Under the pieces are notes generated by a model. That model ran no database searches. It had not been told where the DNA came from and was given only the letters and a program-made list of their open reading frames with translations. Made by a program: the position numbers and the translations under genes. From an uncultured Candidatus Saccharibacteria bacterium (GTDB lineage Bacteria > Patescibacteriota > Minisyncoccia > 2-02-FULL-40-12 > GWA2-44-9), in assembly GCA_964356795.1 (NCBI GenBank), contig CAYHIK010000002.1:26600-90599 (forward strand): 64,000 nt of DNA, written 5' to 3'. Shown one piece after another: positions 1-9,572 of this stretch (position 1 is the stretch's first letter; each line of letters begins with the position of its first letter).

Positions 1-1077
1 CACGATGCCCACGATAGGACTCCGAATAATACCCTTCGCTATGAGCGATCCAATGCGTTGCGCTTTCGCCTGCGCAGACATGAGCGCTGCGCGCTGAGCA
101 TCGATTTCATCGGGGGTAGATCCTGCTTTTGTGAGCGCTAAATCGCTCGCCGCACGCTCTACCGCAAACGTTACCGTTGAGATGAGCTGATCTTGCGTAT
201 TCACCGATGTAATTGCCGCAACAACACTGGAGCGACCCGCGCTCACGTTCGTGCGATACTCCTGCACTACAGTCGACGACAGGACAGCGCCTGGGTCATC
301 TAATACCGCGCCCATCGCAGTAATCGTATCGCGTGCAGATTGAAGATAGCGACGCGCATTACTGAGCGCCGTGGTATACATTGCGTCCGTAGGACTCACT
401 GAAAGGCCATTGAGCTCCTCCTGCCACCGATCAAGATCGGACTCGACAGCGGTACGATACTTTGCCGCGTTCGATGTCTTATAATCATCACAGACGCAGG
501 TGAACGTAAGTCGATAGAGCGGAGTTGCCTCGGTGCCGAAGTTATCAAACATGGCGGCAAGCTGAACGCGGATTGCATTATCGGTCTTTGTGTACGCATC
601 GTAGAGCACATCGTATACATTCGCGTAGGCGTTATCGAGGTCTCGCTGTGCGCGGCGTAAATCAGATTCTTTGATTTCAATCTCTTCGACACGACTCCCC
701 GCTTCGAGCTCGCGGAGCTTTGCCTCCTGTGAAAGCACATTCGCCTGCGCATCCTGAAGATCTGCCGATAATTCGCCAAGATCGAGCGATGCCAACACCT
801 GGCCAATGACTACGCGCTGACCGACAACAGCCGGAACTCGCGCGATGCGGCCACTACTCTGGAACGACAATTCGACATCCTGCGAGGGCTTCACACGACC
901 CGTGACCGAAACAACCTCACTAATGCTCCCCCGAGCAACCGTGAGAGCAGTATCGGGGGCAGAATCCCCACCCCACACCGCATAGAGAACAGCGCCTACA
1001 ACGAAGATAACCGCTCCATATGCTATATATCGTGTTTTGCGCGGGAGTAATCGAAAACGCTTAATATAGGTATTCAT
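1..1077 (-). CDS. Periplasmic adaptor (membrane-fusion protein, HlyD/MacA-like) of an efflux or secretion system; 3' end cut by window edge
   Basis: Open frame on minus strand from ATG at 1077 to position 1 with no stop (not in ORF table because it runs off the edge). N-terminal TM helix, beta-barrel-like motif (VKPSQDVELSFQSSGRIARVPAVVGQRVVIGQVLASLD) and long coiled-coil, typical of MFPs. Divergent from murJ. Confidence 0.55.
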   Translation of the reverse strand, partial: MNTYIKRFRLLPRKTRYIAYGAVIFVVGAVLYAVWGGDSAPDTALTVARGSISEVVSVTGRVKPSQDVELSFQSSGRIARVPAVVGQRVVIGQVLASLDLGELSADLQDAQANVLSQEAKLRELEAGSRVEEIEIKESDLRRAQRDLDNAYANVYDVLYDAYTKTDNAIRVQLAAMFDNFGTEATPLYRLTFTCVCDDYKTSNAAKYRTAVESDLDRWQEELNGLSVSPTDAMYTTALSNARRYLQSARDTITAMGAVLDDPGAVLSSTVVQEYRTNVSAGRSSVVAAITSVNTQDQLISTVTFAVERAASDLALTKAGSTPDEIDAQRAALMSAQAKAQRIGSLIAKGIIRSPIVGIV

Positions 1078-1166
1078 AACGCACGTAGTATACCAAAAAT
1101 ACACCCTCTCGTCCATAAATCCACGCACGAGTGGAATAATCACGCGTCGTGCGTTAGGATTAACCC

Positions 1167-2498
1167 ATGCCACAACGCATCTACAATTATCTGTTCGGTT
1201 CAGTCTTTCGCGCAGGAGCATCAACGCTCACCGTGCTCATCCTCATCAGTAACGCGCTCGGACTGGTGCGCGACATGCTCTTTTCGCGTTTTGTGGGCGC
1301 AACTCGACTTCTCGATATCTATAACGCCTCTTTTATTGTCCCCGATATCCTTCTCAATGTATTTGTAGCTGGCGCGCTTACCGCCGCATTTATCCCCGTA
1401 TTCTCCCACCTCCGAGCGCATGGCGAGCGCGAAGAGTCTGAACGCGTCGCCTCCACTATGCTCGTTGCCGCACCCGCAACGATGGGCCTCATCGGCATTG
1501 TCGCCTTCACATTTATGCCTCAGCTCGCGCACATCGTTGCCCCTGGATTTAACCCCGGAGAGCTCACCCTCCTCATCCGCATGAGTAGGCTCATGTTGCT
1601 CTCCCCTATTATCTTTGCACTCTCGAACACCCTCGGCGGAGTCCTTGTGTCGCTCGATCGATTCGTCGGATATGGCCTTTCATCAATTCTCTACAACATC
1701 GGCATCATTGGCGGTATTTTCTTGATTCCACTCGTTGGCCCAATCGGATTAGCGCTCGGAACCCTCGCAGGGGCACTTCTCCACCTCTCATCGCGCGTTA
1801 TCGCAATTCTCCGCACAGATTTTCGTGCCCATGGTCCAATTAGTTTCAGCAACGAACATTTCCGCCAGATTATGAAGCTCATGCTCCCCCGAGTCGCTGG
1901 CCAGCCCATCGAGCAACTCATCTTCTCAATGTTCACGAATCTGGCCTCCACGCTTGCGGTAGGATCAGTCGCAGTAGTTAATTTTGCGCGCAATTTCCAG
2001 AGCATGCCTATTAGTGTCTTTGGTATCGCATTCTCTATGGCCGTCTTCAGTTCGCTTTCGCGTAAAGCCGCACTCAAAGACCGCGAAGGCTTTCTGTATC
2101 ATCTGAAAGAGACCGCGAAGCCACTCATGATTGCGTCTATCATCTCGATGGTCGTCTATATCCTCTTTGGCTCCTGGATTATCGGACTCCTGCTCGGCGG
2201 TGGAAAGTTCGGCCCCGAAGCCGTGCATCGCACTGCAACACTGCTCGCACTCTTCGCACTCGCCATCCCCGCGGAGAACGCTATTCATCTCCTCGTACGC
2301 TCATTTTACGCACTCAAAGATACATGGACGCCCATATTCGTGAGCATCCCGGGTCTTGGACTTATCTGGCTCCTCTCCAAAGCGCTCATCCCGAGCATGG
2401 ACGTGAACGCCCTCGGTGCGGCATATGCCATCTCGCTTACATCCCAAGCACTCATCCTCTTCGCACTCCTGCGAAGACGATTGAATACGCTCTCGTAG
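1167..2498 (+). CDS. murJ: MurJ/MviN-family lipid II flippase (MOP superfamily), 443 aa
   Basis: Polytopic membrane protein; N-terminus (VFRAGASTLTVLILISNALGLVRDMLFSRFVGATRLLDIYNASFIVPD) matches MurJ family; TAG stop at 2496-2498. Confidence 0.7.
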   Translation: MPQRIYNYLFGSVFRAGASTLTVLILISNALGLVRDMLFSRFVGATRLLDIYNASFIVPDILLNVFVAGALTAAFIPVFSHLRAHGEREESERVASTMLVAAPATMGLIGIVAFTFMPQLAHIVAPGFNPGELTLLIRMSRLMLLSPIIFALSNTLGGVLVSLDRFVGYGLSSILYNIGIIGGIFLIPLVGPIGLALGTLAGALLHLSSRVIAILRTDFRAHGPISFSNEHFRQIMKLMLPRVAGQPIEQLIFSMFTNLASTLAVGSVAVVNFARNFQSMPISVFGIAFSMAVFSSLSRKAALKDREGFLYHLKETAKPLMIASIISMVVYILFGSWIIGLLLGGGKFGPEAVHRTATLLALFALAIPAENAIHLLVRSFYALKDTWTPIFVSIPGLGLIWLLSKALIPSMDVNALGAAYAISLTSQALILFALLRRRLNTLS

Positions 2499-2510: not shown

Positions 2511-5501
2511 CTACTTCCCTACGAAGTTTCCTGAATCATGATGCGATGCATCAGAGATGTCTTCGATCTCGCCCTTGCGATAGCGGTCCGTTGCCATATA
2601 CCCCACGTATCCGAATACTCCGATAATGGCGAGAAGGATTGCAAGAATAGTAGATTCTCCGGGACCAGTCTGTACGCGAGCCGCGACTCCAGCAACTACA
2701 CTACGCGGTGCAGGCGATGCCGTAGGAGCTACCTCAGCGAGCGCAGTCCGATTAATAATAATAGTGCGCGGAATCTGAGTGGCAGTACCAGCTTGATCAA
2801 GCGAAGCAAGACTCAGCTGATTTGCCCCCGCTCGCAGTGGTACCACCGCTTGCCATGAGAAACACCCAACATCAGTAGTGCATCCGGCTGTTGAGGGGAC
2901 AACAGCAACGGTCTGAAGAACTACACCGTTGAGCGTAATGCGAACACCCACGACGGGTGACTTTGACTCAATATTTGGAATCGCGCTTCCGCCCACCACA
3001 ACAGACTCCGATGTAACAACGGCGCCATCGCCTGGGGTCGAAATCGAGACAGAGGGCCCCGAAGATACTGGCTGACTATCATCCCCCAGTCCAGCATCTG
3101 AAGGGCCTGTAAGCGGTGCGTCTGCCCCCAGAACGCCCATCGTAATAATGCCGAGCCCGCCCCGCAGATTCGATACTATATTCGCAAAGAATGAAGACGA
3201 CTCAATGCGAGCCTGTGGCCTCTTCATGATATCTGCTATAGCCGCGAAAAGATCCGCTGGGACACTATTTCCCTGACTTCGAGCGAGCTTTGCCCACTCG
3301 CGCGCACGACCCTCATCGTGCTGCAACATCGCCGCCATCCGGGCAATGACATGCAAATCGGGGGATCTGTCCCGATCATTACTACACACCGAAGAGAGGT
3401 AATCTCTTCCGCCCTGTTCGCCATAAATCATGTGGAGCGTGCGGTCTGGACTTGTTAGCCTCGAGCAGAAATTTCTACCATGAGCGGCCAGCCCGGAATT
3501 AGCCATCGTGATCGCGTGAACCAGTTCGTGCACAAAAAGACCCTCCCATCCATTATCTAGCCCGCCCATTCGTGGAAAAGACATAACCCCATCAGTCGTC
3601 ATACAGGCGCCCGCTCCACCACAACGCGAATTTGAGTCAATCATCGTGTGGAGGTTACCCTTTCCCATCACACCGAGCCTGTCGAGAATGAACGCGTACT
3701 GACCCTCGGTATAGGTTGACGGCACTGAAACACCAAACTTACTTCGAATTTCAGCGATTAAAGACGGCGGAGGTGGCGCACCACAGCTTGAACCTTCACT
3801 GGAACACCCATCACCGCCAGCACCCGAAACACGGGCGCAAGTGCTCGAACGACACTCAAGATGTGAGTCGGGAATCGGAGTAGCGCTTGGAATTGGTGTC
3901 GGGGTATTGCCAGCAGCGATTGTGCACGCCAGAATACAACGATTACCATCATCGCAGTCATTACCACCTATTCCGGGATTGTTAAATCCGTCATCATCGC
4001 AGTCGCCATCATCACACGTCAATTCAGAGGGAATGCACTGGCTTGGATTTGGCGTTGGAGTAGCGACTACGACTCGATCACAGCAACTAGCACAATCAGA
4101 TGATTGCCCAACCGATGAATATCCCGCAGGACACGTGGTGGCCTCGCTACACAAATCTCCTCCCAGCGCGCCACAGCTCAGCCCACCCACCGGAGTGGGA
4201 GTTGGGGTTGGATTCAAAACTGGAGTAGGCGTCGCCTGTGCGATTTGCGTCGGTGTCGGAGTTGAAGCTTGAGGCCCACAGTTCGTGGTACGCGTAGCCC
4301 CAACGCAACGATCACTATCATTTGCGTCATTGCATGCCGTGATGGGATTTGCATTTGATGCCGCTGGATTCAAAACTCCATCTCCGTCGCAGTCACCATC
4401 AGCGCACATGGCATCGTCGACATTAACCTCACATGAGTTTGACGCTGGTGTAGGGGTAGGAGTTGCCTGAGCGAGCGGTGTGGGGGTAGGAGCCTGCGCG
4501 CCACATCCCGTCGTCTGAGTTGCTCCAACGCAACGATCACTATCATTTGCGTCATTGCATGCCGTGATGGGATTTGCATTTGATGCCGCTGGATTCAAAA
4601 CTCCATCTCCGTCGCAGTCACCATCAGCGCACATGGCATCGTCGACATTCACTACGCATGAGCTAGATGTGGGCGTTGGTGTAGGGGTGCCCAATGGTGT
4701 AGGGGTTGAAGTCTGTGGCCCGCAGTTCGTGGTACGCGTAGCCCCAACACAGCGGTCGCTGTCATTCGCGTCGTTACATGTGGCAATGGGGTTCGCGTTG
4801 GAAGCTGCTGGATTGAGCACGCCGTCTCCATCGCAGTCGCCGTCGGCACACATATCATCGTCAGTCACGACGGCACATGAATTGCTTGGGGTTGGAGTAG
4901 TCACTGGCGTAGGAGTTGAAGTCTGCGATCCACAATTCGTGGTACGCGTAGCCCCAACGCAACGATTACCATCATCGGCATCGTTACACGCATTAATAGG
5001 GTTCGCATTCGAGGCGGCGGGGTTGAGCGCGCCGTCTCCATCGCAGTCACCGTCGGCGCACATGTCATCATCAGTCGCGACGACGCATGAATTGTTTGGC
5101 GTCGGGGTTGGTGTTGGCTCTTCAGCGGGATCATCGGTAGGCTCTGGCGTCTCGGTCGCTCCATCGCAAGAATTTCCAGTCTGAGAAGCGCCAACACAAC
5201 TATTGCCGTCATCTTGGTCGTTGCAGGCGGATATTGGATTTGCATTTGAGGCGTCGGGGTTGAGCGCGCCATCATCATCGCAGTCGCCGTCGGCACATCC
5301 CTCATCCGTAACCGTAACCGCACATGGATCAGTGCTTGGTTCGTCGGTTGACTCTGCGGATGGGGGATCTTCCTCTCCAGGATCCTGTTCGAATGCAAAA
5401 AAGCGGCCGACATCAACTGAATAATCCCCCTGCTGATAGACAGCAATCGCTCCCACGATGAGGAGTGATATTCCAAGGAGAGCTGCTGCTCGGCCGAGCA
5501 T
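2511..5501 (-). CDS. Large secreted or surface protein: N-terminal signal/anchor, about 6 tandem Cys/Asp-rich Ca-binding-type repeats with Pro/Thr linkers, HExxH metalloprotease-like domain, C-terminal TM anchor
   Basis: 996-aa ORF. Repeated unit ~73 aa (CADGDCDGDGVLNPAASNANPI..ACNDANDSDRCVGAT). FVHELVHAI motif. C-terminal hydrophobic segment followed by basic residues (RYRKGE). Confidence 0.75.
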   Translation of the reverse strand: MLGRAAALLGISLLIVGAIAVYQQGDYSVDVGRFFAFEQDPGEEDPPSAESTDEPSTDPCAVTVTDEGCADGDCDDDGALNPDASNANPISACNDQDDGNSCVGASQTGNSCDGATETPEPTDDPAEEPTPTPTPNNSCVVATDDDMCADGDCDGDGALNPAASNANPINACNDADDGNRCVGATRTTNCGSQTSTPTPVTTPTPSNSCAVVTDDDMCADGDCDGDGVLNPAASNANPIATCNDANDSDRCVGATRTTNCGPQTSTPTPLGTPTPTPTSSSCVVNVDDAMCADGDCDGDGVLNPAASNANPITACNDANDSDRCVGATQTTGCGAQAPTPTPLAQATPTPTPASNSCEVNVDDAMCADGDCDGDGVLNPAASNANPITACNDANDSDRCVGATRTTNCGPQASTPTPTQIAQATPTPVLNPTPTPTPVGGLSCGALGGDLCSEATTCPAGYSSVGQSSDCASCCDRVVVATPTPNPSQCIPSELTCDDGDCDDDGFNNPGIGGNDCDDGNRCILACTIAAGNTPTPIPSATPIPDSHLECRSSTCARVSGAGGDGCSSEGSSCGAPPPPSLIAEIRSKFGVSVPSTYTEGQYAFILDRLGVMGKGNLHTMIDSNSRCGGAGACMTTDGVMSFPRMGGLDNGWEGLFVHELVHAITMANSGLAAHGRNFCSRLTSPDRTLHMIYGEQGGRDYLSSVCSNDRDRSPDLHVIARMAAMLQHDEGRAREWAKLARSQGNSVPADLFAAIADIMKRPQARIESSSFFANIVSNLRGGLGIITMGVLGADAPLTGPSDAGLGDDSQPVSSGPSVSISTPGDGAVVTSESVVVGGSAIPNIESKSPVVGVRITLNGVVLQTVAVVPSTAGCTTDVGCFSWQAVVPLRAGANQLSLASLDQAGTATQIPRTIIINRTALAEVAPTASPAPRSVVAGVAARVQTGPGESTILAILLAIIGVFGYVGYMATDRYRKGEIEDISDASHHDSGNFVGK
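3880..5330. repeat. Intragenic tandem DNA repeats, period ~220 bp, ~6 copies, several stretches >100 bp identical
   Basis: e.g. 4324-4425 is identical to 4546-4647; mirrored as spurious plus-strand ORFs 3841..4272, 4285..4470 and 4555..5184. Confidence 0.85.
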
Positions 5502-5573: not shown

Positions 5574-6389
5574 TCACTGATTTGGATACACAACAATAAT
5601 TGCTCGCCGACCAGATTCAACGTATCCAACAGGATCGACACCAACTGGCCACTCATCTCCACCCGACGGAGCATCGTGCATCGCATTTAAAAACACATTC
5701 GGAGCAAAGGTGAGATTCCTCCCATGCCGCGTGCCAACATCATTGGTAATAATATCGCCATTATCTGCGACTCCCTTCACCACCAGCATGTGGTACACGG
5801 GGCCTGGTTGCGTGTAATACTTATTTCCCAGCAATCTGCCCGCAAGCGGCACGATAACGGGTCGGCCCGCACGCACATGACGCGCCAAATCTTCGATACC
5901 AGCATTGTATACAACGTCTACACGCTTGTACCCATAATACTCTCGAATGAATCGCGCTGTTTCAGCTGCGGTTGAGTGCTTATAGTATCCGAAATGCTCC
6001 TGCTGCCACGCAACGAGCTTCAGCATCGCCGCCTCGGCCTCCTCCACGGAAAGCGAAGCTCCCCGCCAGAATGCATCCACCAGCATCGCGCTCGCCTCTT
6101 CGCAGGCTTCCTGCCAAGGCAACGACCAATCTCCACGCGGAGCCTGGCTCATGAATGGGACGGCTAAGTTAATCGCGGAAGGAGCCGCCACGATAGTCGG
6201 CAATGGCCTGGGAGTCGTTGTGGCTCGTGGTGAGCCCGATACCGTGGCGACAAGCGGAGTTGCACGAGGTTGCTCGTGAGGAACGCTTGGCTTTTGGAGT
6301 TCAATGAGTCCATCCCGAATCTGCCCTCGAAAAATGATAGCAACGAGTGCAATGACCGAGATACTAATTAATCGCTTCATAGACATCAT
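5574..6389 (-). CDS. Secreted peptidase C39-like (YvpB/BtrH-like) domain protein
   Basis: N-terminal TM/signal, Pro/Thr linker, then Q...C motif (FMSQAPRGDWSLPWQEACEEASAMLV) typical of C39-like cysteine peptidase domains. Confidence 0.5.
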   Translation of the reverse strand: MMSMKRLISISVIALVAIIFRGQIRDGLIELQKPSVPHEQPRATPLVATVSGSPRATTTPRPLPTIVAAPSAINLAVPFMSQAPRGDWSLPWQEACEEASAMLVDAFWRGASLSVEEAEAAMLKLVAWQQEHFGYYKHSTAAETARFIREYYGYKRVDVVYNAGIEDLARHVRAGRPVIVPLAGRLLGNKYYTQPGPVYHMLVVKGVADNGDIITNDVGTRHGRNLTFAPNVFLNAMHDAPSGGDEWPVGVDPVGYVESGRRAIIVVYPNQ

Positions 6390-6747: not shown

Positions 6748-7152
6748 TTAGAGATTGTGGGCTTTGAAGCACTCGATGTACTCCCGGTCCATATGCTTGA
6801 TGTGATTGAGGAGCCAATCATACATCGCGCGAGAAAGTTCAGCGGTAAGCGCATTCTGATCGTCTAAGAATTGAATACGAATCTTATCGATGCGCTCTTC
6901 AAATGCTCGGTGCGATGCTGTATGCGCTTCTGCGTTGGAATAGCACCCAAACGCGATAAAATGCTCCTCCTCTGTTTTGAAGTGATGCTTGATGTAGGCG
7001 CGGAGCTCGTCAAAAATGTCTGATACGTGCTTTCCGATGGTGCCATCGGCAACCGTGCGCTCAAGTTTTGCGATTAAATCAATAAACCGATGATGCTGTT
7101 CATCGACTTCCTCGATACCCATAGCAATTGTCTCATTCCATTCAATTGGCAT
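6748..7152 (-). CDS. Hemerythrin-like (bacteriohemerythrin) protein
   Basis: 134 aa with H/E/D metal-ligand spacing typical of the hemerythrin HHE domain (IEWNETIAMGIEEVDEQHHRFIDL... HFKTEEEHF...H..H). Confidence 0.75.
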   Translation of the reverse strand: MPIEWNETIAMGIEEVDEQHHRFIDLIAKLERTVADGTIGKHVSDIFDELRAYIKHHFKTEEEHFIAFGCYSNAEAHTASHRAFEERIDKIRIQFLDDQNALTAELSRAMYDWLLNHIKHMDREYIECFKAHNL

Positions 7153-7922: not shown

Positions 7923-8522
7923 TCATTTCAGGCGAAGCGTGGAGAGCATCGTATCGACGATGGCGCGAAAGCCGGCGTTGGTGGGATCAGGAGTCATGAA
8001 GGAGATCTCGAGCATCGTTGTGTCGCTTCGCGGAATGTAGATGATATCGAAATCGCCAAGCGCGGAAACCTGAATACGTTTCACCGATTCCCCAGCAAGT
8101 ATTTCGTCAGAGAGTGGCTTCGTAATCGTTCCCACATCTTTGAACATTTGCTCCTGTGACTTGATATATGCATCCGTTCCGCTTGGCGTCGGAAACGTGC
8201 GCATACTAAAGATGATGCCGTCGTACATCTCGGTCTGCCCCTTCTGTGTGGGCCCCCACATACTAAATCGAACGTCCGAAGCACTATCAGAATGTTTCGT
8301 TAATTTGGAGTCATACGCTATCGAAAGATTCATCGTCTCACTGGTGTACATCTGCCAGTCAGCAGGAGCGCTGACTTCTTGGGCGCTCTGCGAACCTCCA
8401 TACCACCTCCACGCACCAAACACAGCGCCCACGAGCACAACCACCGCAATACCTGTCATGAGTTTATGTTTTCTCATATCGTATATGAATAATTCTTTTG
8501 CACGCACTATAGCATTTTGCAT
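7923..8522 (-). CDS. Membrane-anchored or secreted hypothetical protein
   Basis: N-terminal TM/signal (KLMTGIAVVVLVGAVFGAW) then soluble domain; alternative ATG at 8477. Confidence 0.5.
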   Translation of the reverse strand: MQNAIVRAKELFIYDMRKHKLMTGIAVVVLVGAVFGAWRWYGGSQSAQEVSAPADWQMYTSETMNLSIAYDSKLTKHSDSASDVRFSMWGPTQKGQTEMYDGIIFSMRTFPTPSGTDAYIKSQEQMFKDVGTITKPLSDEILAGESVKRIQVSALGDFDIIYIPRSDTTMLEISFMTPDPTNAGFRAIVDTMLSTLRLK

Positions 8523-8585: not shown

Positions 8586-9572
8586 CTAGCGATGCACCTC
8601 CTCCCACTGAAAGAGCTGGGAGAGAAGCACTGTGGCGTAGACGCCGGGCGGAAGGTCGAACATGAGCTCCCATCCCTGCGGTTTGGGCGAGGCCGAGAGG
8701 TTCTTCGGCTCGATGACCGTCCGTCGCATGAACGGCGGGGCCAGCTTGCTCGCCCACGTGGTGGCGCCCAACTTGGGCGGACACCAGAACGGACGATACA
8801 GCTCGACGATGTCGGGTCTCGACGACCACATCGGGAGCTCCGCCGGCACACCCTCGAGCCCACGATCGTCCACGAGCTGTGCGAACAGAGTGTTCCACAG
8901 AACGCTCTGCCACTTCTCGAGCGCGAACTCCAACGAGAAGGCGAACTCGGGGTGGAAGAGCGCCTCCTGCAGAGAACGCTTCCCCACGCTCGCCGCCACC
9001 TCGAGCTGTCTTCGTGATGGCGACGCCATCACCGCGTCCACCGCTTCGGCGAACTTTCCCTCGAAGAGGAAACGGCCAATCCGCTCCGAGCCCTCGGCTC
9101 CCATGCGCTGTGGACCAAAGAAGTTGGGAAGTCGAACCACGTTCTTCAGGGGGACGCTCGTCGCGTCCGTGAGAACGAGGACGCTGAAGTGATTGCCTTG
9201 GTGCTTCGCCAGTCGCCCAGCCCCGCCGATGTGGCGAAGAAAGACGCGGTCATGACGGAAGAAGGGATAGTACCGCCCCTCCACCCACATGCGCTGGGAC
9301 GTCAGGGCATGCTTGTCCTTCAACCCCAACCTGCCGATGCAGTTGAGCGAAGTTCGAAGTTGGCGAGCGACGAGGCGCCTTGCGTCCTCGGTCGTCCAGC
9401 CCTCTTTCGTGACCTCGAAGACGGTCACGGCCGACTCCCCGTCCCACGGGCGAACGAGCGTCTCGTCCGCGAGCGGAACGTACGACCCGTCTGGGTTGAT
9501 CTCCTGCACCACGAACGAATCCGTGGTGCTCTTGATGATTCCACGCGGGAGCGTGGTGGTGTTTTCGCCCAT
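8586..9572 (-). CDS. truD: tRNA pseudouridine(13) synthase TruD
   Basis: Matches TruD hallmarks: FVVQEINPDG (cf. E. coli FVVVEDLGFEPDG), GLKDKHALTSQRM (cf. GQKDKHAVTEQWL), LPNFFGPQRMG (cf. VPNYFGAQRFG). GC about 63-67% against 50-54% flanks. RBS GGAGGT. Confidence 0.85.
   Translation of the reverse strand: MGENTTTLPRGIIKSTTDSFVVQEINPDGSYVPLADETLVRPWDGESAVTVFEVTKEGWTTEDARRLVARQLRTSLNCIGRLGLKDKHALTSQRMWVEGRYYPFFRHDRVFLRHIGGAGRLAKHQGNHFSVLVLTDATSVPLKNVVRLPNFFGPQRMGAEGSERIGRFLFEGKFAEAVDAVMASPSRRQLEVAASVGKRSLQEALFHPEFAFSLEFALEKWQSVLWNTLFAQLVDDRGLEGVPAELPMWSSRPDIVELYRPFWCPPKLGATTWASKLAPPFMRRTVIEPKNLSASPKPQGWELMFDLPPGVYATVLLSQLFQWEEVHR

Follow-up and report, generated by a model that had tools for sequence, protein, structure and literature searches.

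The locus considered here raises the question of what kind of protein is encoded at positions 2511..5501 on the minus strand, how that protein is held at the cell surface, and whether its internal repeats vary in number. The gene lies within a window of 64,000 nucleotides (the whole stretch of DNA that was analysed) from contig CAYHIK010000002.1 of an uncultured Candidatus Saccharibacteria bacterium. It is an open reading frame (ORF) that runs from an ATG to a stop codon and specifies 996 amino acids (aa), and an NCBI protein encoded on a 104-kb contig (P0031) is an exact match. We regard it as probable, if well short of certain, that the product is a zincin-like surface enzyme of groundwater Patescibacteria (the Candidate Phyla Radiation, CPR) that is anchored in sortase fashion and probably binds calcium. 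The parts of the gene are as follows.

2511..5501, minus strand: whole gene for the surface protein, with its stop codon at 2511-2513 (from the ORF list and identity with P0031)
5391..5501, minus strand: predicted N-terminal signal-anchor (aa 1-24 hydrophobic) and then the lineage-specific motif GDYSVDVGRFFA (from hydropathy and the presence of the motif in homologs)
4209..5324, minus strand: five Cys/Asp modules in tandem (aa 60-431), namely R1 (60-138), R2 (139-208), R3 (209-281), R4 (282-356) and R5 (357-431), each with C-x9-CADGDCDGDG-x-LNP...CNDxxDxxxC...C and a TP-rich linker
4525..4649, minus strand: R4 copy of a 125-bp exact repeat, the longest exact direct repeat of the ORF (offset 225 nt)
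4300..4424, minus strand: R5 copy of the same exact run
4077..4175, minus strand: Cys-rich module CGALGGDLCSEATTCPAGYSSVGQSSDCASCC (aa 443-475); P0002/P0032, P0033 and P0003, a small and unrelated protein, each have 1-3 copies of it
3924..4037, minus strand: CDDGDCDDDGFNNPGIGGNDCDDGNRC (aa 489-526), a sixth module that is short and of the ancestral type and aligns with units of P0002, P0004 and P0009
3783..3863, minus strand: HLEC beta-hairpin mini-module, H-L-x-C-x4-C-x10-C-x6-C (aa 547-573), kept in seven homologs
3153..3767, minus strand: orphan HExxH (zincin-like) domain, aa ~579-783 (from the family alignment and an AF2 model)
3516..3530, minus strand: HELVH motif (aa 658-662), its H, E and H invariant in nine homologs
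2748..3065, minus strand: immunoglobulin (Ig)-like beta-sandwich with a conserved Cys pair, aa ~813-918 (from Big_7 and Glucodextran_B matches)
2514..2693, minus strand: C-terminal sorting/anchor module, aa 937-996, comprising VQTGPGE (2655-2675), a transmembrane (TM) helix, RYRK and a 20-aa tail that ends in NFVGK

An initial annotation, made from the sequence alone, had described a surface protein, and this layout bears it out. Of the features named there, the TP-rich linkers, the FVHELVHAI context of the HELVH motif, and a hydrophobic C-terminal segment (hydropathy peak at ~aa 948-971) that is followed by RYRKGE are present in the ORF.

In the reading that we favour, the protein would be exported via the N-terminal signal-anchor, which bears a motif of the form GF..RFFA. 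A stalk of five (plus one) disulfide-rich modules with D-x-D-x-D-G motifs and Thr/Pro linkers, most likely a rigid spacer that binds Ca2+, would then display the Cys-clasped hairpin, the orphan HExxH domain (probably a Zn-dependent hydrolase) and the Ig-like domain. The protein ends in what we take to be a CPR-specific tripartite module, composed of VxTGPG[ED], a TM helix and a basic cluster, with a tail of ~20 aa ending in DF[RK]. This module may be a variant of the sorting signals that sortases recognise, with cleavage most likely between T and G. Lipid II or peptidoglycan would then receive the protein through the action of a divergent sortase, and protein whose C-terminal module is left uncleaved would be retained in the membrane.

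Many proteins that are unrelated in other respects, with cohesin, DUF11, PKD and Big_7 domains among them, have C-termini that align with the last ~60 aa of the 996-aa protein. The shared consensus is V-x-T-G-P-G-[ED]-x-T, a hydrophobic stretch of ~17 aa, then L-L-Y-V-G-Y-T-x-T-x-x-[FY]-R-R-x-E and a tail ending in D-F-[RK]. In an alignment of 18 sequences, five positions do not vary (V, T, G, Y and Y). The 996-aa protein has V-Q-T-G-P at aa 943-947, and the L-P of LPXTG signals is absent. A hydrophobic helix and positive residues (RYRK) follow the motif, as is expected of a sorting signal, and the ~20 further conserved residues are atypical of one. There is no model in Pfam or NCBIfam, for a sorting signal or an anchor, that matches this module. 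The initial annotation had proposed a check for sortase-type C-terminal signals. What is found is a modular VxTGPGE-TM-RR signal, and a sortase gene stands beside genes of this type in related loci.

The distribution of the module was examined with a hand-made degenerate DNA pattern of 98 nt, built from the invariant positions. There is only one match in the window, which falls at the expected site, and shuffled sequences give none (chance expectation 0). Among 185,579 species, with one genome each, there are 18 matches in 15 loci, and every one of them is found in a metagenome-assembled genome (MAG) of Patescibacteria, under the labels Yanofskybacteria, Paceibacterota, 'Saccharibacteria' and H41-bin111_1. 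Several matches can occur in one genome, also in tandem gene clusters. Metagenome contigs contribute 19 loci with the same pattern.

The other end of the protein is also modular. An N-terminal export signal is predicted from the hydrophobic aa 1-24, and just after this first TM helix there is a motif with the consensus GF[ST]x[DE]xx[RKQ]FFA, represented here by GDYSVDVGRFFA and of the GF..RFFA type in the homologs P0002, P0004, P0009 and P0033 as well. In 14 of the 15 genome loci the C-terminal module is found on 32 ORFs, 19 of which have the N-terminal motif too. The N-terminal motif is found on 28 ORFs in 14 Patescibacteria loci, and nine of these ORFs carry it by itself. Because small proteins have this motif and lack the C-terminal module, it can be considered an independent module. 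These small proteins head clusters of surface-protein genes.

Individual examples of such small proteins (136-232 aa, with a TM helix and GFSLxFM[RK]FFA) are located at L003 4307-4801 (minus strand), L006 1571-1981 (plus), L011 238-747 (plus), L014 7232-7726 (minus) and L017 6795-7493 (plus). The RFFA motif is also seen in two genes for dockerin proteins, at L008 2469-3530 (plus strand; Dockerin_1 at E 4.7e-7) and L015 6764-7834 (minus). Their partners, small proteins encoded at L008 3490-4269 (plus) and L015 6040-6756 (minus), have the VxTGPG module and closely resemble P0026, a homolog with a Cohesin match at E about 4e-6. The adjacency of the dockerin and VxTGPG genes in two Patescibacteria MAGs suggests a cohesin-dockerin display system on the CPR cell surface.

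A gene for a ~220-aa sortase is found directly beside module-bearing genes, and on the same strand, in the loci L003, L012 (at 4157-4813), L016 and L017. The product matches the Pfam Sortase family at E 1e-19 and 71 bits (cutoff 26.6), and has the signature residues GH, L(V/I)SC and R; the strict T[LIV]xTC pattern is not matched. The four copies are 66-71% identical to one another, and their scores for the NCBIfam sortase classes C, D, E, F and GN (23-43 bits) reach none of the respective cutoffs (140-166). Homologs of this sortase are present at six of the 19 metagenome loci, including five of the eight that are at least 5 kb in length. With genome and metagenome loci combined, a divergent sortase accompanies module-bearing genes at 10 of 34. 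A tblastn search with the sortase found no homolog in the 64-kb window, in L001-L002 or in L010, and so at none of the loci of the HExxH gene that it covered (L018 and L019 were outside this search).

Sortases are widespread in the CPR, and the source for this statement names no substrate motif (PMC6744442). The literature that we searched likewise holds no description of a substrate motif for CPR sortases. The motif, helix and basic cluster, the many cargoes per genome and the adjacent sortase fit a sortase-type sorting signal, and such a CPR-specific sorting variant appears to be undescribed. We also put forward a wider proposal, which we hold tentatively and with confidence slightly short of even. 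The two termini (GF[ST]x[DE]xx[RKQ]FFA and VxTGPG[ED]-TM-RR-...DF[RK]), together with a divergent sortase clade, may define an undescribed sorting system that is specific to Patescibacteria. Its cargo would include DUF11/PKD giants, cohesin/dockerin pairs and the MurJ-linked orphan HExxH enzyme, which in this proposal would be a new zincin family with a role at the cell wall or the host surface.

The proteins encoded next to the sortase gene differ in their details. Ordinary signal peptides are found in those at L012 4872-6188 (minus strand), L016 5775-7034 (minus) and L017 2677-4308 (plus). Sortase-adjacent proteins carry the variant motif VKTGP[AT]D and have tails ending in NF[SK][RK]. These proteins are candidates for the primary substrates of the sortase, perhaps of a pilin-like kind.

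There are clear parallels with the LPXTG signals of Gram-positive bacteria. In both, a T-G motif is located directly before a hydrophobic helix and a basic cluster, the C-terminal module is present on many unrelated surface proteins per genome, and a gene with a sortase domain is adjacent. Unlike the LPXTG signals, the CPR module has V-x-T-G-P-G-[ED] in place of L-P-x-T-G and adds a conserved tail of ~20 aa (DF[RK]) past the basic residues, and the CPR sortase fits none of classes C, D, E, F and GN. Cleavage here is putative. In staphylococci and streptococci, a YSIRK-type signal peptide pairs with LPXTG. The co-occurrence of GF..RFFA and VxTGPGE on 19 ORFs is similar to this pairing in that an N-terminal motif accompanies a C-terminal signal on a subset of proteins. 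However, the motif sequences are unrelated, and GF..RFFA is located after the hydrophobic segment rather than before it. In addition, small proteins and dockerin proteins have GF..RFFA by itself.

The HExxH region is the presumed business end of the protein. In an alignment of nine homologs with 21-30% identity there are five invariant columns in all, and three of these are the H, E and H of HExxH. The AF2 model of this region has a mean predicted local distance difference test (pLDDT) score of 68 and a predicted template modelling (pTM) score of 0.63, with residues 1-140 of the model in blocks scoring 64-88. It contains, in order, a Cys-clasped beta-hairpin, two helices with short strands, a long helix (108-123) and a helical bundle. 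The HExxH motif is located in this long alpha-helix, as is characteristic of zincins. At the candidate column for the third metal ligand, five homologs have E (xEMxAYG), and the 996-aa protein (H717), P0002 and P0008 have H.

Similarity to known families is slight. Pfam gives nothing significant for the HExxH domain (the best is SprT-like, at E 0.07), NCBIfam gives nothing relevant, and a PDB profile search has no match at E<=10. Foldseek finds no significant match for the model (best E 1.6 against PDB and 0.03 against BFVD), and the structural resemblance to zincins is weak. The non-significant leads agree with one another, in that the top BFVD matches include IrrE-like, SprT-like and metallopeptidase entries and a 'metallo-protease' of the PHROG set comes up at E 0.017. 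The initial annotation had called this region zinc metalloprotease-like. That part of the idea which concerns the motif holds, because HExxH is constrained (three of the five invariant columns), but a significant match to a family or fold is missing. Its alternative suggestion of a DUF4157-like domain falls away, as PF13699 (formerly DUF4157, now 'eCIS core') is matched by only one of the nine homologs, at E 0.16 and below the gathering score, and not by the 996-aa protein. We consider the region an orphan zincin-like domain, probably a catalytic Zn-dependent hydrolase, on the basis of its sequence and model. It resembles surface HExxH proteases (pneumococcal M26 Zmp) and minimal zincins (SprT-like, IrrE/ImmA-like and the DUF4157/eCIS core) in its surface display and in having a long HExxH helix after a small alpha/beta subdomain. 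Unlike these, it is an orphan without a significant match (SprT-like E 0.07, PF13699 E 0.16, Foldseek E >= 0.03).

Several smaller modules surround this domain. The HLEC hairpin, at the start of the catalytic region, has two predicted strands with pLDDT >80, and it is repeated in an otherwise unrelated surface protein (P0025). The initial annotation had noted beta-rich sequence after HExxH, and this proves to be Ig-like. The matches to Big_7 and Glucodextran_B (Pfam) are weak for the 996-aa protein, while Big_7 is above threshold in P0013 and Glucodextran_B is near threshold in P0009. The Cys-rich CGxxGGxxC module, judged by its sequence, is a mobile mini-domain. A small TP-rich membrane protein of 357 aa (P0003, from ENA) has the form CGxxGGxxCSxxxxCPxGYSxxGQSSDCxSCC twice, with 64% identity over the module. 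Mannosyl-3-phosphoglycerate synthase gives weak matches that fall on the TM helix; we attribute these to composition and discount them.

There are few relatives of the protein. An exhaustive search of 1.84 billion representative proteins yields 28 matches at E<=1e-3, many of the proteins matching the Ig-like part of the query. About nine of the 28 span the HExxH region (P0002/P0032, P0004, P0005, P0006, P0007, P0008/P0033, P0009 and P0011). A word-indexed homology search with aa 580-996 finds nothing, a similar search with the HExxH-domain alignment finds only P0008, and scans of GTDB genomes and JGI metagenomes with the whole protein find no relatives. Full-length members share an architecture in which a TM helix with ..SRFFA, two to seven DxDxDG units and one to three 'CGxxGGxxC...CC' modules are followed by the HLxC hairpin, the HExxH domain, the Ig-like domain and the C-terminal module. 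This is a new and very rare protein family, assembled from partly recognisable parts. Those members that can be placed on named genomes belong to Patescibacteria MAGs (L010), and Hainich groundwater fractions collected on 0.1-um filters are dominated by Patescibacteria (PMC8672522). The window DNA is chromosomal, encoding MurJ, RpoD, DnaG, TruD, a DEAD-box helicase and tRNAs.

The stalk is formed by modules of the type C-x9-C-A-D-G-D-C-D-G-D-G-x-L-N-P-A-A-S-N-A-N-P-I-x-x-C-N-D-x-x-D-x-x-x-C-...-C, each followed by a Thr/Pro linker. Where the earlier count was about six repeats, there are five full modules and one shorter module at aa 489-526 (CDDGDCDDDG...NDCDDGNRC). Tandem Repeats Finder reports arrays with periods of 225 and 210 across 4251-5099 (scores 714 and 544). 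R4 and R5 are 82% identical in DNA overall and share a single exact run of 125 bp (4525-4649 versus 4300-4424), and all other pairs of modules have 59-76% identity with longest exact runs of 12-31 bp. Thus, the statement that the repeats are near-identical units of ~220 bp with identical stretches of >100 bp applies to R4/R5, but not to the other pairs. Over a core of 45 codons, R4 and R5 differ at four codons, and other pairs differ at 25-34, mostly synonymously; the R3/R4 differences are 27 synonymous and six non-synonymous. Because the pairs other than R4/R5 have diverged, chiefly at synonymous positions, the array is mostly old and conserved as protein, rather than a homogeneous slippage tract. 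The sequences indicate that purifying selection on the protein has kept this old array, to which one recent duplication or conversion (R4/R5) has been added. A generally hyper-variable repeat tract, as first proposed, is not what is seen.

Ten positions (C10, D12, G13, D14, C15, D16, D18, G19, N22 and P23) are invariant in 15 units from four homologs. D-x-D-x-D-G is the classical signature of a Ca2+ loop. It is plausible from this motif that the modules bind Ca2+ and form a rigid, disulfide-bonded stalk. The number of units per homolog is two in P0033, three in P0002/P0032, 5+1 here and 6+1 in P0009, and this variation from two to seven fits a spacer of adjustable length. The initial annotation had compared the repeats to thrombospondin type 3 and other calcium-type repeats. 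The DxDxDG/Cys motif is real and invariant, but TSP_3 membership is not supported, as the Pfam TSP_3 model has no match in the 996-aa protein at E<=1 or in the 15 repeat units at E<=10. The MopE-type family PF11617 has weak matches to five of the 15 single units (best E 1.8e-4), none of which are R1-R5. With whole proteins it scores 14.8 bits for P0002 and 16.2 bits for P0004 against a gathering cutoff of 27 bits, which does not place them in this family. The homolog units that match PF11617 are without the SNANPIxA insertion, and the matches suggest that only units of the ancestral type are distant relatives of this family. In short, the modules are like MopE-type PF11617 and thrombospondin type 3 repeats in having repeated D-x-D-x-D-G with flanking cysteines, and unlike them in that R1-R5 match nothing and carry an insertion of eight residues (SNANPIxA) and two extra cysteines. 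A structure model of the repeat unit (pLDDT 64) has no fold matches. The sole match in a PDB sequence-profile search with the repeats is a 15-residue stretch of acyloxyacyl hydrolase (AOAH), at E 0.77. There was nothing usable in the literature searched on the AOAH calcium site or on CPR cohesin-dockerin systems.

Several observations weigh against a sortase-anchored, calcium-binding zincin. There is no sortase in the 64-kb window, the motif is VxTGP rather than LPxTG, and the NCBIfam sorting-signal models have no match. Among the sortase-linked loci, many are syntenic ones from related genomes and do not count as independent observations. For the HExxH domain there is no invariant third metal ligand among the homologs, the model averages a pLDDT of only 68, and searches by sequence and by fold give no significant match. 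The repeat model is likewise poor and without fold matches, which leaves the motif as the argument for calcium binding. Finally, the tail of ~20 aa is conserved to its last residues, which is atypical for a signal that is discarded and fits a permanent anchor with a cytoplasmic partner. Indeed, the C-terminal module might simply be a TM anchor whose conserved cytoplasmic tail docks an intracellular partner, possibly while pairing with the N-terminal TM helix. In that case, the sortase would act elsewhere or only on the neighbouring VKTGP[AT]D proteins. A permanent tether of this type is possible, if on balance doubtful. It would account for the tail past the basic cluster (DF[RK] at its end), for the absence of a sortase from the window and for the conservation of the N-terminal TM helix and RFFA motif, which co-occur with the C-terminal module in 19 ORFs, and CPR surface systems with C-terminal TM helix anchors have been reported (bioRxiv 10.64898/2026.03.03.709456). 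However, a plain anchor has no need of an invariant extracellular V-x-T-G directly before the helix, and T-G is the scissile pair of sortases. Moreover, the sortase is arranged as in an operon with module-bearing genes at 10 of 34 loci, and the motif, hydrophobic stretch and basic cluster follow the tripartite logic of sorting signals.

Another possibility is that the protein is an adhesin or host-attachment factor whose HExxH domain has a binding or structural role without protease activity, and whose stalk length is tuned for reach. The differing repeat numbers among homologs (2, 3, 5+1 and 6+1) would suit such a role, as would the Ig-like domain and Cys-rich modules, which are typical of adhesins, and the lack of a match to any protease family. 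We nevertheless find this unlikely, because homologs with 21-30% identity all keep the catalytic-type Glu as well as both His residues, and this Glu should have been lost in some lineages if the domain were purely structural. A sortase-anchored surface enzyme remains our preferred reading.

The number of repeats can be compared between two public assemblies. ENA contig L001 (ERZ1292624) encodes the same gene as a product of 921 aa (P0001), and its name, 'Hain_H41_01um_R3 ... cov_5', is taken to mean Hainich groundwater well H41 and a 0.1-um filter. It is identical to the window DNA over 11.3 kb save for a clean deletion of 225 bp, which is exactly one unit, and three mismatches at the contig end. 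The junction of the deletion is located within the exact run of 125 bp, and the 4,424 bp that come next are free of mismatches. The expectation that these repeats could collapse or vary is thereby borne out. In the long form, ~100 bp of unique sequence (about 4425-4524) lies between the 125-bp copies, where the R4 tail and the R5 head differ. As a simple loop error cannot create such sequence, the gene has five units or more. For the short form there are two readings, a genuine variant with one unit fewer or an assembly loop that has collapsed. By sequence, only R4/R5 is a pair recent enough for recombination or slippage to add or remove a unit, or for an assembler to collapse it.

Could the gene be a contingency gene, whose tract length changes at high frequency through slipped-strand mispairing? 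The exact tandem duplication of 125 bp in R4/R5, the difference of exactly one 225-bp unit between public assemblies from the same well, and a unit length that is a multiple of three, such that the reading frame is kept, are all compatible with this. However, there is only one similar pair, and the others (59-76% identity, with saturated synonymous differences) attest to long-term stability. In addition, the 921-aa form comes from a short-read contig at 5x coverage and may itself be a collapsed loop. The assemblies do differ by one unit, but the several near-identical units that a slippage-prone contingency gene would have are not seen, and we judge such a gene quite improbable. The repeat number in the window might instead be the artefact, with a true gene of four units (as in L001) or of more than five. 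The two assemblies disagree on the number of units, and a repeat of 125 bp is longer than common k-mer sizes. This we think very improbable, and slightly more so than the contingency gene, in view of the ~100 bp of unique sequence between the 125-bp copies in the long form. The assemblies are otherwise identical, and extra copies are conceivable. In practice, caution is called for with repeat counts in this gene, as public assemblies of one and the same population differ by one unit.

The neighbours of the gene are the following.

5574..6389, minus strand: upstream neighbour, a membrane-anchored Peptidase_C39_2-like protein of 271 aa, 72 bp away (Pfam E 6.9e-9)
1167..2498, plus strand: convergent neighbour, the lipid II flippase MurJ, 443 aa (Pfam E 8e-69)
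1..1116, minus strand: 5' part of an HlyD/MacA-like adaptor gene that runs off the window (from the L001 gene list and coordinate mapping; an ABC ATPase is next in L001)

These genes make the locus an envelope neighbourhood. MurJ adjoins the family gene in five of five loci and in two arrangements. In the window/L001, L018 and L010 it lies downstream and is convergent, and in L002 and L019 it lies upstream and is divergent. Lipid II is the molecule to which sortases attach their substrates, and since MurJ is a lipid II flippase, its linkage would fit the sortase theme. The C39_2 gene is immediately upstream on the same strand in two loci, the window and L018, and the L018 copy is 68% identical. 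The family homolog in L018 is 31-34% identical, and the genes beyond the trio of MurJ, family gene and C39_2 differ from those of the window. An HlyD/MacA-like adaptor and an ABC ATPase are found near the family gene in the window/L001 and, as orthologs, in L002 and L019, with a MacB permease in L019.

Patescibacteria, which live attached to other cells, make up a large share of bacterial diversity, and little is known of how they build their surfaces. If the proposed sorting system is real, the pair of N- and C-terminal signals would let the surface proteome of uncultured Patescibacteria be read from sequence, including candidate host-interaction enzymes such as the 996-aa protein. It would also provide a testable substrate motif for CPR sortases. 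The orphan HExxH domain, with its constant MurJ linkage, is a concrete target for biochemistry.

Some further genes and reading frames deserve mention. A gene for a prepilin-type protein (N_methyl, GFxxxE; 152 aa) comes right after the family gene in L002 (3020-3478, plus strand) and L019 (3210-3668, plus), where it precedes the operon for the MacA-like adaptor, ABC ATPase and MacB; the window does not have it there. A short way upstream of the C39-like gene are genes for a hemerythrin-domain protein (6748-7152, minus strand; E 6e-17) and a TruD-type pseudouridine synthase (8586-9572, minus; E 7e-28). The order of these two is kept in L001. A 199-aa membrane-anchored protein (7923-8522, minus), also conserved in L001, belongs to no Pfam family and has a weak FecR-like match in NCBIfam (E 0.0012). 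Lastly, long ORFs overlap the repeat region at 4555-5184 (plus strand), 3841-4272 (plus) and 4901-5476 (another minus-strand frame), and these are most likely shadow ORFs of a repetitive and stop-poor coding sequence.

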